Part shown: one piece after another, positions 19,542-24,918 of the stretch
How positions within the stretch are numbered: the stretch's first letter is position 1
Layout: every line of letters begins with the position of its first letter
Virus genome (UHGV): UHGV-0182056
Reading direction: 5' to 3' (one strand)
DNA: 35,022 nucleotides
Origin: a virus
The notes under the pieces: generated by a model
The model's database searches: none
Told to the model about the DNA's origin: nothing
What the model saw: only the letters and a program-made list of their open reading frames with translations
Made by a program: the position numbers and the translations under genes

Positions 19542-21308
19542 ATGAACACCACACTGACACCCGCAGATCTCGATCCCCGTCGGCAGGCCATGCTGCTGTA
19601 CTTTCAGGGATACCGCGTAGCCCGCATTGCTGAAATGCTGGGCGAGAAAGTTGCAACCGTTCACAGCTGGAAAAAACGCGACAAGTGGGGTGACTATGGG
19701 CCGCTGGATCAGATGCAGCTCACCACCGCCGCACGCTACTGCCAGCTCATTATGAAGGAGCACAAAGAAGGGAAAGATTTCAAAGAGATTGACCTGCTGG
19801 CGCGCCAGTCGGAGCGCCATGCGCGGATCGGCAAGTTTAACAATGGCGGCAACGAAGCCGACTTAAACCCTAACGTCGCCAACCGCAACAAAGGCCCGCG
19901 CCGTCAGCCGGAAAAGAACGTTTTCACCGATGAACAGATTGAGAAGCTGGAAGAAATCTTCCATTCCTCCATGTTCAACTACCAGCGCCACTGGTGGGAA
20001 GCCGGAAAAAACAACCGCATCCGCAACCTGCTGAAGTCACGCCAGATCGGCGCGACCTTCTATTTTGCCCGTGAAGCCCTGATTGACGCCCTGCTAACCG
20101 GGCGTAACCAGATTTTCCTTTCCGCCAGCAAGGCTCAGGCCCACGTCTTTAAGCAGTACATCATCGACTTCGCCAAAGAAGTGGAGGTGGAGCTGAAAGG
20201 CGATCCGATGGTGCTTCCTAACAGAGCCACGCTTTACTTCCTCGGCACCAATGCCCGCACGGCCCAGAGTTACCACGGCAACCTGTATCTGGATGAATAT
20301 TTCTGGATACCGAAATTCCAGGAGCTGCGCAAAGTGGCTTCCGGTATGGCTATTCACAAAAAATGGCGACAAACCTATTTTTCCACGCCATCCAGCCTGA
20401 CACACAGTGCTTATCCGTTCTGGTCCGGTGCGCTGTTCAACCGAGGGCGCAACAAAGCCGACAAGGTGGACATCGACCTGTCCCACAGCAATCTGGCCCC
20501 CGGCCTGCTGTGCGCAGACGGGCAATACCGCCAGATAGTCACCGTGGAAGATGCGGTGCGCGGCGGCTGTAACCTGTTCGACCTCGACCAGTTGCGCATG
20601 GAGTACAGCCCGGACGAATACCAGAACCTGCTGATGTGCGAGTTTGTGGACGATCTCGCGTCCGTGTTCCCGCTCAGCGAGCTGCAGGCATGCATGGTGG
20701 ACAGCTGGGAAGTCTGGACCGACTTTCATGCACTGGCCCTGCGCCCGTTTGGCTGGCGCGAAGTGTGGATCGGTTATGACCCGGCAAAAGGTACGCAGAA
20801 CGGCGACAGTGCCGGATGCGTGGTGGTGGCTCCGCCAGCCGTGCCGGGCGGTAAGTTCCGTATTCTTGAGCGTCACCAGTGGCGCGGGATGGACTTCCGC
20901 GCCCAGGCGGACGCCATCAAAAAACTGACCGAACAGTACAACGTGACATACATCGGTATCGACTCAACTGGCGTCGGCCACGGGGTTTACGAGAACGTGA
21001 AAGCATTCTTTCCTGCCGTCCGGGAGTTTGTCTATAACCCCAATGTTAAAAACGCCCTGGTACTCAAGGCCTACGACATTATCAGCCACCGCCGTCTGGA
21101 GTTTGACGCCGGGCACACCGACATTGCGCAGTCATTTATGGCAATCCGTCGCGCTACCACTGCCAGTGGCAACCGCCCGACCTATGAAGCCAGCCGCAGC
21201 GAAGAAGCCAGCCATGCCGATCTGGCCTGGGCAACAATGCACGCACTGTTTAACGAACCGCTGCAGGGCGAGTCCGCCAATACCAGCAATATTGTGGAGA
21301 TTTTTTGA
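19542..21308 (+). CDS. P: Terminase large (ATPase) subunit gpP
   Basis: 588 aa; P2 gpP-like size and position, divergent from the capsid operon. Confidence 0.85.
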   Translation: MNTTLTPADLDPRRQAMLLYFQGYRVARIAEMLGEKVATVHSWKKRDKWGDYGPLDQMQLTTAARYCQLIMKEHKEGKDFKEIDLLARQSERHARIGKFNNGGNEADLNPNVANRNKGPRRQPEKNVFTDEQIEKLEEIFHSSMFNYQRHWWEAGKNNRIRNLLKSRQIGATFYFAREALIDALLTGRNQIFLSASKAQAHVFKQYIIDFAKEVEVELKGDPMVLPNRATLYFLGTNARTAQSYHGNLYLDEYFWIPKFQELRKVASGMAIHKKWRQTYFSTPSSLTHSAYPFWSGALFNRGRNKADKVDIDLSHSNLAPGLLCADGQYRQIVTVEDAVRGGCNLFDLDQLRMEYSPDEYQNLLMCEFVDDLASVFPLSELQACMVDSWEVWTDFHALALRPFGWREVWIGYDPAKGTQNGDSAGCVVVAPPAVPGGKFRILERHQWRGMDFRAQADAIKKLTEQYNVTYIGIDSTGVGHGVYENVKAFFPAVREFVYNPNVKNALVLKAYDIISHRRLEFDAGHTDIAQSFMAIRRATTASGNRPTYEASRSEEASHADLAWATMHALFNEPLQGESANTSNIVEIF

Positions 21309-22342
21309 TGGGCAAGAGTAAGAAGAACCGCGCTGCGTCGACGAAACAGATCCAGCATAAAAGCCAGACTTCAGCCGAAGCATTCAGCTTCGGTGATCCC
21401 GTTCCTGTTCTGGACCGCCGCGAACTGCTGGACTATGTGGAATGCGTACAGATGGATCGTTGGTATGAGCCGCCTGTGAGTTTCGACGGACTGGCGCGAA
21501 CCTTCCGCGCCGCCGTGCATCACAGCTCACCGATTGCAGTGAAGTGCAACATTCTGACCAGCACCTACATCCCTCACCCGCTGCTCAGCCAGCAGGCTTT
21601 TTCGCGTTTTGTACAGGACTATCTGGTTTTTGGTAACGCCTACCTGGAGAAACGCACGAACCGCTTCGGTGAAGTTATCGCCCTTGAGCCTGCACTGGCA
21701 AAATACACCCGACGCGGGTTAGACCTGGATACCTACTGGTTTGTGCAATACGGCATGACTATGCAGCCGTATCAGTTCACGAAAGGCAACATTTTTCATC
21801 TGATGGAACCGGACATCAACCAGGAGATCTACGGCCTGCCCGGTTATCTTTCTGCCATTCCGTCAGCTCTGCTCAACGAGTCCGCCACGCTGTTCCGCCG
21901 CAAGTATTACATTAACGGCAGTCATGCAGGCTTCATCATGTACATGACCGATGCAGCGCAGAACCAGGAGGATGTGAACAACCTCCGCAATGCGATGAAA
22001 AGCGCCAAAGGTCCTGGTAACTTCCGTAACCTGTTTATGTACTCGCCTAACGGTAAAAAGGACGGGCTTCAGATTATCCCGTTGTCAGAAGTGGCGGCGA
22101 AGGATGAGTTCCTGAATATCAAGAACGTGAGCCGGGACGACATGATGGCGGCGCATCGTGTGCCGCCACAAATGATGGGGATAATGCCTAATAATGTCGG
22201 GGGGTTTGGGGATGTGGAGAAGGCCAGTCGCGTATTTGTACGTAATGAATTAACTCCCTTGCAAAAAAGGCTACAAGAGCTGAACGACTGGCTGGGCGAA
22301 GAAGTGATTAAATTTACGCCCTATATTCTTTCAGAAGAATAA
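21305..22342 (+). CDS. Q: Portal protein gpQ
   Basis: 345 aa, overlaps the P stop, P2 order P-Q-cos. Confidence 0.85.
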   Translation: MMGKSKKNRAASTKQIQHKSQTSAEAFSFGDPVPVLDRRELLDYVECVQMDRWYEPPVSFDGLARTFRAAVHHSSPIAVKCNILTSTYIPHPLLSQQAFSRFVQDYLVFGNAYLEKRTNRFGEVIALEPALAKYTRRGLDLDTYWFVQYGMTMQPYQFTKGNIFHLMEPDINQEIYGLPGYLSAIPSALLNESATLFRRKYYINGSHAGFIMYMTDAAQNQEDVNNLRNAMKSAKGPGNFRNLFMYSPNGKKDGLQIIPLSEVAAKDEFLNIKNVSRDDMMAAHRVPPQMMGIMPNNVGGFGDVEKASRVFVRNELTPLQKRLQELNDWLGEEVIKFTPYILSEE

Positions 22343-22350
22343 TTCCGAAC

Positions 22351-23049
22351 TTATTTGTTTCTTCTTTGTTCACGCCTTGTCTTGGCTTCGATAAGGCGTT
22401 GAGGTTCAGTGTAAAGCCGTTCTAAAAAAAGATAGGTAAAATCTTCAAGATCCTCAGCAGCAGCTTTATCCAAAATACCTTCATGCGCTCCATCATTTCC
22501 GTCATCTTTAACGCATTCAGCTAGTTCCCTTAAAGCTTCAGGCAGTAGATGATTATCAAATAACCACTCCATTCTTAACCCTAGGCTTCTCCTTATTTTT
22601 TGCGCAGGCCCTTGCTCCCCATCAGGAAGAAGTCCTTTTGTGGCATAATCAAGGCAAAGCCTAAACATGGTTGCTGCTGCATTATAACAACCTATAGCCA
22701 AACATTTCGCCCCTTCCTCATATGCACTATTGATATGCTCAGGTAAGAACTCTGGTGGCTCCTCTACTGCTAAGTCTGCCGGTGATATAGGCCTAACAAC
22801 CTCTGCAACTTCCTTTAAGCCGAATATTCCACTTTCCCAATTATAGCCATCTAAAGTTTTATTTTTCGTTAAAGGTCTGCAAAGAAACATTGTCGTTTTA
22901 TGACACTCTCGGCAAACACAATAGACCTCGTACTCGTATGTTTTACCCCCGCCCAATGCATTGTAAACCCTAGTGCAATTCAGCCCATTCACATCAAACG
23001 CTATTTTTTGTGATCCACATCGTGGACAGTCATCCACTAACATAACCAT
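22351..23049 (-). CDS. Accessory protein: N-terminal Cys4 zinc ribbon plus alpha-helical C-terminal domain; possible HEPN/DUF4145-like fold; function unknown
   Basis: 232 aa, inserted between Q and cos where P2 has no gene; CPRCG...CRECH; C-terminal GNDGAH resembles the GN-AAH core I recall for DUF4145, but no Arg at the Rx4-6H position; strong RBS GGAGGAG; AT-rich. Confidence 0.45.
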   Translation of the reverse strand: MVMLVDDCPRCGSQKIAFDVNGLNCTRVYNALGGGKTYEYEVYCVCRECHKTTMFLCRPLTKNKTLDGYNWESGIFGLKEVAEVVRPISPADLAVEEPPEFLPEHINSAYEEGAKCLAIGCYNAAATMFRLCLDYATKGLLPDGEQGPAQKIRRSLGLRMEWLFDNHLLPEALRELAECVKDDGNDGAHEGILDKAAAEDLEDFTYLFLERLYTEPQRLIEAKTRREQRRNK

Positions 23050-23160
23050 GTCAATTACTCCTCCCTATGAAAAAAATGAGTTGAAAAATTGAATATTCAC
23101 GACTTAAAAAGCTAGCCTATTTAACACCATAATTTCATTAATTCAACCATGAGCGCGCGC

Positions 23161-23180
23161 TCGTATCCCCGCCACGCCTG
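23161..23180. other. cos-like cohesive-end / packaging site
   Basis: Reverse complement reads GGCGTGGCGGGGATACGAGC, whose first 13 nt match the P2/186 cohesive-end sequence as I recall it; located next to Q as in P2. Confidence 0.5.
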
Positions 23181-23220
23181 CCCGCTTTATGTAGTGGTTT
23201 TCATGCGCCTGCATGACATA

Positions 23221-23247
23221 AGCAAAAGCCCGCCACTCCTGGCGGGC
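23221..23247 (-). terminator. Rho-independent terminator after the 203-aa cargo gene
   Basis: Hairpin GCCCGCCA-loop-TGGCGGGC followed on the minus strand by CTTTTGCTT. Confidence 0.5.
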
Positions 23248-23338
23248 CTCAGCTAAAACGATCCTCAAACGATCATGCGGATTCATGCAGCATAGACATG
23301 CACAATCTCCAAAGCGGGCATCGAGACTTTTTGGAAAC

Positions 23339-23950
23339 CTACGTAACCACAGTTAATGTGTGCATCCTGTCTCGAATTGCATCACACGTCTCATCAAAAA
23401 GCTTGGTGATGGTTGTACGGTTCAACTCCGCCTCTTTCCAATAATTTTGCCCGTCAAATTCTGGATCGCTATGCTGAAACGATATTGACTCTGAAAGGCA
23501 TTCCTTCCGGAAACGGTCCAAGATTATATAAACCTCTGGTGAGATGAACGGTTTGTTAGATTCAACACTTGTGACAAAAGTGTTAAATGCATCAAAAAAA
23601 ACTTTCAACCTTCTAAATTTTCTCTCTTCAAATGGTTCGTTGGGGTCAACATGATCCAGCGCAGGCCTCAGCTTAAGCACGCTTTCTCTGGTTTCAAACA
23701 TCGAATTCCAAATGAGACTATATGCTGATAACTCCTTATCAAAATACGCTTTCGTTACATAAACAGAATTGTCTAACTTAGCCTTTATTCTTTCATTAGT
23801 TGCACTCAGTTGTGATTGAAATTCAGCAATATCTTTGTTTAGCCGCGACTTATATCTTTCTAAATAAACTTTCCCGATCCAAACAAATATGCCAGATGCA
23901 ACAAAAGACACCCCACCCAACGAAGCCAGAACTTTAAAGACTAAATCCAT
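23339..23950 (-). CDS. Accessory membrane-anchored protein of unknown function (N-terminal transmembrane helix, coiled-coil, cytoplasmic domain)
   Basis: 203 aa; hydrophobic segment LASLGGVSFVASGIFVWIG near the N-terminus; AT-rich; lies where P2 carries old/tin. Confidence 0.5.
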   Translation of the reverse strand: MDLVFKVLASLGGVSFVASGIFVWIGKVYLERYKSRLNKDIAEFQSQLSATNERIKAKLDNSVYVTKAYFDKELSAYSLIWNSMFETRESVLKLRPALDHVDPNEPFEERKFRRLKVFFDAFNTFVTSVESNKPFISPEVYIILDRFRKECLSESISFQHSDPEFDGQNYWKEAELNRTTITKLFDETCDAIRDRMHTLTVVT

Positions 23951-23998
23951 TGCGCCCCCACCTACAAAAATAGTATTCCATTATAAGCTAATACATTT

Positions 23999-24259
23999 TT
24001 AATCAAACAGGGGATAATTCGCGTCAACCTCATCACTTCTCTGCTCTACCCTAGTGACTTCCATCAAAAACCCCAGGCCGTCATATAGCGAAACGGGGAA
24101 TTCCAGCTCAAGCCAGAAGCAGTCTTCATAGATGCGGCCCAACCAAAAACCTCCGCCACACTCCTTTGGGCGTTGAAAGAAGACCCAGTCGCCAAGGGTA
24201 AACCGTTCCAGCACCTGGCCCCGATAAATAATCTGGTGATTACTGTCTTTTTTACCCAT
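23999..24259 (-). CDS. Accessory small protein of unknown function
   Basis: Track ORF 23999..24310 begins at a TTG; likely ATG start at MGKKDSNHQ; no family recognised. Confidence 0.4.
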   Translation of the reverse strand: MGKKDSNHQIIYRGQVLERFTLGDWVFFQRPKECGGGFWLGRIYEDCFWLELEFPVSLYDGLGFLMEVTRVEQRSDEVDANYPLFD

Positions 24260-24332
24260 GGCTAACGCCTCGCTACTCTCGTTGTTCAACCTTGCTGACG
24301 TCAGATTCAAGTTCTTACATCAGGAACGTTCC

Positions 24333-24566
24333 TTAGTGCAGCCAGCTGTCGTCTTCCCAAACCTGTTGCATAATTTCCATCACCCGCTTTTTGTCTTCAT
24401 CAAGCTTTAAGCCACTCAGCTCAACGCCGTTTGCCGACCCTTTACGGATGCGGATAGCGGTCTTGGGATAGATGGGTTGCAGGTTGCGGTAAAGCTCGGA
24501 CTCCAGAGCGTCCAGGGTAGACTGGCTAATCTTCTGCTCTTTATCGATCATTATTTCAATGCGCAT
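24333..24566 (-). CDS. DinI-like protein
   Basis: Likely start at MRIEIMIDKEQKIS... preceded by GAGG; 77 aa with acidic C-terminus (VWEDDSWL) resembling E. coli DinI as I recall it. Confidence 0.7.
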   Translation of the reverse strand: MRIEIMIDKEQKISQSTLDALESELYRNLQPIYPKTAIRIRKGSANGVELSGLKLDEDKKRVMEIMQQVWEDDSWLH

Positions 24567-24576
24567 AAAAGTCACC

Positions 24577-24765
24577 TCAGCTGATGACATCCATTGAGCG
24601 GTTGTATTCGTGGCTTCTGATTTTTGCCATGAGTTCATCAGTCAATTCAGAAACCCACTGCAGGGCCAGCCCCTTCTCTTCATCACTACACTCACTAGCC
24701 GCTACAAGCTTAAGAAAAAAATCAATGCGCTGGAGCTTCAAAGACTCCAAAAAATAGTCCTGCAT
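24577..24765 (-). CDS. Small protein (62 aa), first gene of the LexA-box-controlled operon; candidate Tum-like antirepressor (speculative)
   Basis: Start MQDYFLESLK preceded by AGGAGG; LexA box 45-60 bp upstream; 10-bp gap to the DinI-like gene. Confidence 0.45.
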   Translation of the reverse strand: MQDYFLESLKLQRIDFFLKLVAASECSDEEKGLALQWVSELTDELMAKIRSHEYNRSMDVIS

Positions 24766-24807
24766 CTTTCCTCCTATGACACCGCAAACAATACTGTATA
24801 GATAACC

Positions 24808-24826
24808 ACTGTTTATATTTACAGTA
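24808..24826. promoter_or_regulatory. LexA (SOS) box
   Basis: ACTGTTTATATTTACAGTA fits CTGT-N8-ACAG with an AT-rich spacer; sits just upstream of the small-ORF/DinI-like operon. Confidence 0.7.
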
Positions 24827-24918
24827 TATAATAATCTTACTGATGTAAAACGTTTTTTTACGTTCATCAGCCTGATATGCCAGGTATTATTAAGAGCACG
24901 AATTGTTAACCCGCGTAA

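Follow-up and report, generated by a model that had tools for sequence, protein, structure and literature searches.

A cargo gene between Q and cos

The virus genome UHGV-0182056, whose 35,022 nucleotides constitute the window analyzed here, belongs to the Peduoviridae; it is that of a P2-like prophage with Fels-2 as a close relative. The subject of this report is a single minus-strand gene, referred to in what follows as the cargo gene, which lies between the portal gene Q and the cos site (Table 1) and which we consider as a candidate gene of anti-phage immunity. The region around it is in essence that of Escherichia phage Cartapus, which is prophage 4 of E. coli LF82. The cargo protein is 100% identical to Cartapus gp01 (annotated as a 'DUF4145 domain-containing protein'), to WP_000245245.1 and to LF82_788 (CARTA_1); its PHROG assignment is phrog_1305. 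Q and the cargo gene are convergent, their stop codons (22340-22342 and 22351-22353, respectively) being separated by an 8-nt gap. A first-pass annotation of this DNA had noted a minus-strand open reading frame (ORF) with a strong ribosome-binding site in the space between the Q stop codon and a cos-like motif, and had seen that it is AT-rich relative to the flanking structural genes. Both observations stand: the ORF has a G+C fraction of 0.419 and the cassette that contains it one of 0.401, whereas Q is at 0.518, P at 0.568 and the window at 0.512. The motif is also there, shifted by 1-2 nt from the 23161-23180 originally given: the cos 19-mer GGCGTGGCGGGGATACGAG reads from 23178 to 23160 on the minus strand, 110 bp away from the start of the cargo gene. 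The identical 19-mer is found in Fels-2, one Klebsiella phage and four E. coli prophages, and the conserved block that contains it carries a 'putative cos site' in the annotation of the Cartapus record.

In P2 itself, the interval from the end of Q to cosL is 167 bp long and holds only the tQ terminator; the cargo gene is absent at this position from P2, Fels-2 and the Klebsiella relatives. The proposed insertion relative to P2 is thereby supported. When the window is compared by blastn with seven sibling loci, homology extends along Q and ends at 22257-22330, that is, 12-85 nt before the Q stop codon; it restarts at 23148-23153, continues for ~150 bp through the cos block to 23301-23308, and is then lost again until the DinI region, at 24251-24343. 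Since homology breaks on both sides of the cos block, the hotspot consists of two cassettes flanking cos. Since it also stops short of the end of Q, the last 4-28 Q codons are swapped along with the cargo cassette.

The gpA-gpQ interval is a defence hotspot of P2 (Rousset et al. 2022; 'P2 hotspot #1' of Vassallo et al. 2022), and the cargo gene is cassette cargo in the cos-Q arm of that hotspot. The likeness to P2 extends to the interval itself, which runs from the replication gene A to the portal gene Q, to its variable and AT-rich cargo and to its validated defence systems. There are two differences. The P2 genes old and tin are on the A side of cos, whereas the cargo gene occupies the Q side, which is empty in P2, and the lineage of the cargo gene has two independently varying cassettes, split by the conserved 150-bp cos block. 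The first-pass annotation was therefore right about a variable cos-proximal site but not in placing old and tin at this one. The variability is seen both in the unrelated genes that fill the slot in sibling prophages and in its occupancy: 1258 of 5426 complete E. coli genomes have this type of Q, and the cargo gene is present in only 43 of these. Packaging accordingly proceeds without need of the cargo gene, and a packaging role was rejected on that count; the universal presence with a packaging function that had been named at the outset as telling against cargo is not what the genomes present.

The sibling slot genes listed in Table 1 each lie on the Q side of the identical cos 19-mer and are transcribed toward Q; several of them are uncharacterized and would be defence candidates themselves. 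The ctx cytotoxin gene of Pseudomonas phage phiCTX lies in the same slot and in the same orientation (cosL at 1-21, ctx at 362-1222 on the plus strand and Q at 1435-2379 on the minus strand), which makes the cos-Q slot a general site for accessory cargo (morons). Ctx differs in being an unrelated, pore-forming toxin that serves virulence and not immunity.

Table 1. Features of the cargo gene and its surroundings, with the genes of sibling slots and two distant relatives (positions are those of the window unless preceded by an L number, which designates another locus)
Feature	Position	Strand	Remarks
Portal gene Q	21305..22342	+	Pfam Phage_portal; 61% identity to P2 Q (tblastn); convergent with cargo gene
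Variable cassette 1, Q side of cos	22331..23147		blastn of window against seven sibling loci
Cargo gene, RAZR-like zinc-ribbon/DUF4145 (HEPN) coding sequence	22351..23049	-	232 amino acids; ATG start
Pro-rich linker and DUF4145/HEPN, residues 88-232	22354..22788	-	putative RNase effector
Putative active-site motif, K181-H189 (KDDGNDGAH)	22483..22509	-	aligned to PDB 9y9c chain OA
Variable ~27-residue segment, residues 60-87	22789..22872	-	between zinc ribbon and linker; not in RAZR
Cys4 zinc ribbon, residues 1-59 (C8, C11, C46, C49)	22873..23049	-	putative sensor; fast-evolving half
Shine-Dalgarno sequence GGAGGA	23059..23064	-	9 nt 5' of cargo ATG; read from sequence
Candidate sigma-70 promoter, TTGAAT, 17-nt spacer, extended -10 TGtTAAATA	23118..23146	-	found by eye; inferred; inside cassette
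Conserved cos block, including 19-mer at 23160-23178	23148..23303		~89-93% identity in sibling prophages
GC-rich hairpin followed by UUUUGCUU	23221..23247	-	upstream of cargo gene; RNA fold -25.1 kcal/mol, z = -5.4
Sibling slot, E. coli B	L010 5547-7595		retron St85 reverse transcriptase and effector
Sibling slot, CFT073	L011 5590-6741		383-residue TIGR02391 protein
Sibling slot, CX12	L012 5576-7925		three-gene set including TIGR04255 protein
Sibling slot, DG342-2	L013 5588-6900		STAS-like pair
Sibling slot, Klebsiella phage ST512-KPC3phi13.2	L006 1896-3341		AIPR/Abi-alpha-like protein
Sibling slot, Fels-2	L007 1235-2932		565-residue protein, STM2723.1
Shigella phage POCJ13 gp20, Stx-phage relative	L003 4040-4714		Rx7H; 25-27% identity; beside Ren-like exclusion gene and RelE/ParE toxin
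Gordonia phage Meyran gene 1, relative	L005 94-783		Rx7H; 25-27% identity; adjoins cos and terminase genes

Relationship to RAZR

Both sequence features that the first-pass annotation had picked out in the cargo protein, the Cys4 ribbon and the GNDGAH segment (residues 184-189), are conserved across its family, with C8, C11, C46 and C49 each retained in 222-232 of 236 family sequences. The assignment to HEPN/DUF4145, which had been called weak, turns out to be solid at the family level: Pfam DUF4145 (PF13643) matches residues 114-203 with E = 4.5e-7 and 30.3 bits, above the curated cut-off of 23.1. DUF4145 is a HEPN family with a motif described as 'mostly conserved (80%)', and fusions of it to zinc ribbons had already been noted (Anantharaman et al. 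2013). One search yielded 603 homologues and another yielded 927 representatives clustered at 50% identity, with a spread over many bacterial phyla. On account of these many homologues and of the strong purifying selection on the HEPN half that is referred to below, the cargo ORF is, as judged by its conservation, a real gene.

The defence protein that it most resembles is PD-T7-4 of E. coli UMB1727 (Vassallo et al. 2022), annotated as 'Zn finger-HEPN' and since renamed RAZR, for ring-activated zinc-finger RNase; it was described in 2026 from two close homologues, and its structure is PDB 9Y9C (Zhang et al. 2026). With its N-terminal Cys4 zinc finger, RAZR binds either the portal dodecamers of phages or an Erf-like ring that is a 24-mer; 24 copies of RAZR assemble round the phage ring, and the HEPN domain (R146, H154) cleaves single-stranded RNA, with the consequence that the infection is aborted. 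Variability within RAZR is greatest in the zinc-finger domain, which determines its specificity; the R146A substitution abolishes defence, and RAZR alone is non-toxic (Zhang et al. 2026).

PADLOC returns PD-T7-4 as the sole defence match of the cargo protein, with 26.1 bits and E = 1.2e-6 over profile positions 39-165 of 211. BLASTP against RAZR gives 26% identity over 136 amino acids (E = 8e-6) in the linker and HEPN only. PDB searches by phmmer with the single sequence, and with a narrow family profile, gave no match; with a broad family profile the top match is the RAZR chain 9y9c_OA (E = 1.3e-5), from which an alignment of the RAZR family was recovered. When the broad family is set against that of RAZR in hhalign, the probability is 97.7% and E = 2.3e-12 over 169 columns (query 8-224, RAZR 15-189) that take in the HEPN domain and the Pro-rich linker as well as both CxxC pairs, with C8/C11/C46/C49 falling on RAZR C16/C19/C49/C52 (as they also do with MAFFT); the narrow family profile reaches only 62%. 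By these profile comparisons, the cargo protein is a true but distant full-length homologue of RAZR that has the same architecture and falls outside the PD-T7-4 family as modelled. The lack of similarity to defence families that had been named as counting against a defence function was thus not encountered; instead, the cargo gene's candidacy as a defence gene gains from the architecture that its product shares with a validated system. The suggestion of a nucleic-acid-binding sensor or effector is better replaced by that of a predicted sensor and effector in one polypeptide, in preference to a generic nucleic-acid binder.

Both proteins are single chains of ~220-230 residues in which a Pro-rich linker joins an N-terminal Cys4 zinc ribbon to a DUF4145/HEPN domain at the C terminus. 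They share the catalytic His and the Asn, and also the pair E88/R105 of RAZR (E112/R130 of the cargo protein), which is near-invariant in the cargo family (E112 in all 236 family sequences and R130 in 235). Both have a variable zinc-ribbon half, are encoded without a partner gene and are carried by mobile elements. They differ in their settings, with RAZR adjoining two integrase genes and the cargo gene lying between cos and Q, and also in the salt bridge between RAZR dimers: D180/R184 become R211/E215 in the cargo protein, which amounts to a charge swap, and these aligned interface positions are conserved. The zinc ribbons are unrelated in sequence. A further difference is in the active site, where the cargo protein has Lys in place of the catalytic Arg of RAZR.

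The alignment pairs K181 with R146 of RAZR, N185 with N150 and H189 with H154. Thus, the catalytic His is matched by H189 and the catalytic Arg, eight residues before the His, is not matched. Across the 236 family sequences, position 181 is Lys in 156, Arg in 67 and Gln in 6; with Lys or Arg in 223 (94%), a basic residue is conserved there. Position 189 is His in 231 sequences and position 185 is Asn in 227. Arg at position 181 predominates in distant members of the family (33 of the 49 that are below 40% identity) and Lys in the clade of the cargo protein; all 31 full-length P2-slot alleles analyzed, which come from P2-like viral contigs, have Lys. The classical HEPN motif is Rx4-6H, while the spacing here is Kx7H in the cargo protein and Rx7H in RAZR. 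The first-pass annotation had found the Arg of Rx4-6H to be lacking; the Arg is indeed absent, but its place at R146 is taken by the conserved K181, and the validated motif of this lineage is Rx7H. From the conserved basic residue and the nearly invariant motif around it, we infer that the cargo protein has a live active site with a conservative substitution; as a matter of general enzymology, a change of Arg to Lys can retain transition-state stabilization.

The two halves of the cargo protein have evolved at different rates. Identity in the zinc-ribbon half (residues 1-87) and in the HEPN half is 0.67 versus 0.87 among close homologues, and 0.34 versus 0.66 in the mid range. The pairwise nonsynonymous divergence, dN, is 0.12-0.38 in the zinc-ribbon half and 0.03-0.10 in the HEPN half, that is, 3-6 times higher in the former. 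Only this contrast in dN is usable, because the synonymous divergence, dS, is saturated; for the same reason dN/dS was dropped as a test of positive selection on the zinc ribbon. Residues 60-87 have the top column entropy in the family alignment and face a gap in RAZR in both the MAFFT and the hhalign alignments. The pattern of variability matches the one reported for RAZR, and the HEPN half is, by the measure of its substitutions, under strong purifying selection.

Among other validated defence proteins, DS-38, BxaP and Ishtar resemble the cargo protein in coupling a HEPN/DUF4145 effector to a different sensor module, but none has the architecture of the cargo family. DS-38 (DefensePredictor, WP_001313577.1) has a zinc finger that is different from that of PD-T7-4, and its length of 366 amino acids rules out identity with the cargo protein. 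BxaP joins DUF4145 to a HEAT-like domain; in Ishtar, which targets plasmids, the HEPN domain is N-terminal.

At 75 genome loci outside P2-like prophages, relatives of the cargo gene have no recurrent neighbour (of the 70-74 flanking genes, at most 3 belong to any one Pfam family); scattered among housekeeping genes there are sporadic integrases, resolvases, transposases, TIR proteins and OLD/AbiEii-like ATPases. The cargo gene accordingly has no conserved partner and fits a single-gene system. A two-gene system that would include the 203-residue ORF across cos was considered and rejected: one and the same allele of the cargo gene may or may not be accompanied by that ORF, which is lacking in other genera. 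In IMG/VR, a relative is found at 63 loci; 50 of these have a P2-type Q directly downstream, and most also have the cos 19-mer ~100-220 bp upstream; identity to the cargo protein ranges from 100% down to 49% and that of the adjacent Q from 99.7% down to 62%. Among loci of species-representative genomes, the cos-gene-Q arrangement is found in 5 of 80, and ~75 of 80 are not beside a P2-type Q. The arrangement is also present in Raoultella, Leclercia, Tatumella and Enterobacter genomes. Distant relatives (25-32% identity) are found in the accessory region of Stx phages, in Burkholderia phages and in Gordonia phage Meyran. With Meyran, an actinophage, the position at a genome end recurs in an unrelated phage lineage.

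Proposed anti-phage immunity and its alternatives

Expression of the cargo gene can be followed in the published transcriptome table of LF82, whose values are given as log2(fpkm+5) (fpkm being fragments per kilobase per million reads). CARTA_1 stands at 4.65-4.71 in stationary phase in lysogeny broth (LB), at 7.0-7.6 in Dulbecco's modified Eagle medium (DMEM) and at 9.2-9.6 in macrophages, so that its transcript rises ~30-fold from LB to macrophages. The portal gene remains at 2.45-3.07 across all conditions, and the capsid and terminase genes are at the floor throughout; the normalized value in LB is 25.6 for CARTA_1 versus 5-8 for late genes. The prophage thus transcribes the cargo gene at a time when its late genes are silent. 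LF82 releases Cartapus genomes at a low level. These data provide the look at lysogen RNA that the first-pass annotation had proposed, and they bear out expression in the prophage state.

The most likely role of the cargo gene is that of a weapon against phages, and not one in packaging. The more specific reading that we favour, and think a good deal more probable than any of its competitors taken singly, is that it is a prophage-borne, single-protein, RAZR-type immunity gene encoding an abortive-infection RNase. By homology to RAZR, the fast-evolving zinc-ribbon half would bind a protein of the infecting phage, possibly one that forms a large ring (portal or recombinase). Binding would drive or reshape oligomerization so as to create an active RNase site (K181/N185/H189) between HEPN domains brought together in pairs; non-specific RNA cleavage would then stop translation and abort the infection, to the benefit of the lysogen population and its resident prophage. 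The cassette would spread among P2-like phages by recombination in its conserved flanks, the 3' end of Q and cos.

Several considerations weigh against this reading. The literature that was searched reports no phenotype for any member of the cargo-protein family. True RAZR-family proteins score 315-339 bits, full-length, on the PADLOC PD-T7-4 model; at 26.1 bits, the cargo protein is below the family-level score and is not a RAZR orthologue (with a ten-fold shortfall, orthology is ruled out), and its mechanism may be different. The residue that Lys replaces is an Arg that is essential in RAZR. There are ~27 extra residues after the zinc ribbon of the cargo protein and the two ribbons are barely alignable, so that the trigger and the geometry of assembly could also differ from those of RAZR. 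Structure models were unusable, with pLDDT (predicted local distance difference test) scores of 39.5 for the single-sequence model and 51.2 for one based on an alignment padded with the RAZR family, and Foldseek against the PDB with these poor models as queries found nothing below E = 1; the HEPN fold and the geometry of the zinc ribbon are consequently read from sequence profiles alone. In LB, CARTA_1 is under the 5-fold cut-off for morons that was used by the authors of the LF82 study, and it is not listed by them. Finally, the strong recurrence of the gene beside Q could reflect a portal-linked role rather than hitch-hiking in a hotspot.

This last consideration leads to the alternative that survives best, though we regard it as improbable: that the cargo protein acts with, or on, the portal and packaging machinery of its own phage, as a cos/portal accessory factor, as a guard that distinguishes self from foreign portals, or as a weapon against satellites that hijack P2 capsids. 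The frequency of the cos-gene-Q arrangement in IMG/VR and its presence among the species-representative loci, the wide span of identities that slot alleles and their adjacent Q genes cover, the binding of portal dodecamers by the homologous RAZR, the location of the Meyran homologue (gene 1) beside cos and the terminase genes, and the swapping of the final Q codons along with the cassette are all in its favour. The low occupancy of the slot in E. coli genomes with this Q type argues otherwise, as do the absence of the gene from P2, the many genome loci that are not beside a P2-type Q, and expression in the lysogen instead of with the late genes. Moreover, on backbones whose Q genes are 86-91% identical, the cargo alleles are only 57-88% identical, with saturated dS; diverged alleles have therefore been exchanged within the same slot, which fits allele exchange at a hotspot better than co-evolution with Q. 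A related and equally doubtful proposal would make the family a portal-linked sister of RAZR, with a long residence beside Q that is functional, a zinc ribbon that ignores the resident portal ring and recognizes foreign portal or recombinase rings or those of hijacking satellites, and a Lys-for-Arg exchange that marks a distinct RNase branch.

Less probable still is an altered or inactive HEPN domain that would bind RNA without cleaving it, which would make of the cargo protein a decoy or inhibitor that co-assembles with RAZR-type proteins of the host (counter-defence), or else a nucleic-acid-binding regulator with a zinc ribbon. The loss of defence in RAZR R146A, set beside the Lys at position 181 in most family members and in every P2-slot allele, could be read in that way, and phrog_1305 carries the label 'DNA binding protein'. 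The label is an annotation, however, and not an experiment. The near-invariance of the His, the Asn and the GNDGAH segment and the preponderance of basic residues at position 181 are unlike a site that has been freed from selection, the dN of the HEPN half is very low, and general enzymology allows for the exchange of Arg for Lys.

The least likely of the alternatives, a selfish addiction module (a HEPN toxin) that stabilizes the prophage or a stress RNase that serves the host, for example in macrophages, draws on the common occurrence of HEPN domains as toxins of toxin-antitoxin systems and on the rise of the LF82 transcript in macrophages, but the cassette has no adjacent antitoxin-like gene (MNT or other), no neighbour is conserved across loci, RAZR is not toxic on its own, sibling prophages fill the slot with recognized defence systems, and neighbouring genes of the DinI region rise in the same samples, so that the induction in macrophages looks regional.

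What is new here is a sister family of RAZR, set apart by Lys where RAZR has Arg and by a sensor domain that is distinct, with its place in the cos-Q arm of the P2 hotspot. The family to which the cargo gene belongs is a separate and very widespread one that has the architecture of RAZR with another active-site residue and another sensor domain, and in viruses it is found most often in the cos-Q slot of P2-like phages. If the gene defends as predicted, HEPN immunity triggered by rings or assemblies would extend to a second family, and a named system would be added to a hotspot that is present in ~1/4 of the complete E. coli genomes searched. A testable question of self and non-self would also arise, since the resident phage makes its own portal ring on induction; it is an odd point that a relative of a portal-sensing immune protein should be found so persistently beside a portal gene. 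Were the portal-linked proposal true, the locus would offer a natural system for learning how a sensor that is directed, in immunity, at a conserved viral assembly spares this assembly when the virus that encodes the sensor makes it. The gene is, besides, one that the Crohn's-associated strain LF82 expresses inside macrophages. If there is no defence, it is an ordinary uncharacterized accessory cargo gene of a prophage.

Candidate regulatory signals and the gpA-side arm

The cargo gene probably has its own promoter, for which the candidate in Table 1 is inside the cassette; an automatic promoter scan with a stricter rule called no minus-strand promoter. The hairpin upstream of the gene and the UUUUGCUU that follows it are conserved with the cos block in sibling prophages. 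The hairpin is terminator-like and would insulate the cargo gene from read-through from the gpA side; alternatively, it may belong to the site that terminase recognizes. Rfam matches over 22000-24900 are at chance level only. A 47-residue ORF on the minus strand, at 23143-23286, overlaps the cos 19-mer and the hairpin; it has no Pfam match and is probably not a gene, given that the cos block in which it sits is conserved and non-coding.

Between gpA and the cargo gene lie a gene of the DinI family (24333-24638) and a small ORF (24577-24867, phrog_698). In LF82 in macrophages, the DinI-like gene and the small ORF rise from log2 values of ~3-4 to 9-11, with gpA and the late genes silent, which suggests SOS- or stress-linked transcription of this gpA-side arm without prophage induction.

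The second variable cassette, on the gpA side of cos, extends over 23304-24250, with minus-strand ORFs at 23339-23950 and 23999-24310, and it varies independently of the RAZR-like gene. The ORF of 103 residues is phrog_2100. The one of 203 residues (phrog_26391) has an N-terminal hydrophobic helix and a coiled-coil-like region, with no significant Pfam match (the best, at E = 0.009, is below the cut-off) and no PADLOC match. It is LF82_789 (CARTA_47), a listed moron at 7-fold above background in the LF82 RNA sequencing data with a log2 value of 10.5 in macrophages, and it could be another exclusion or defence gene.

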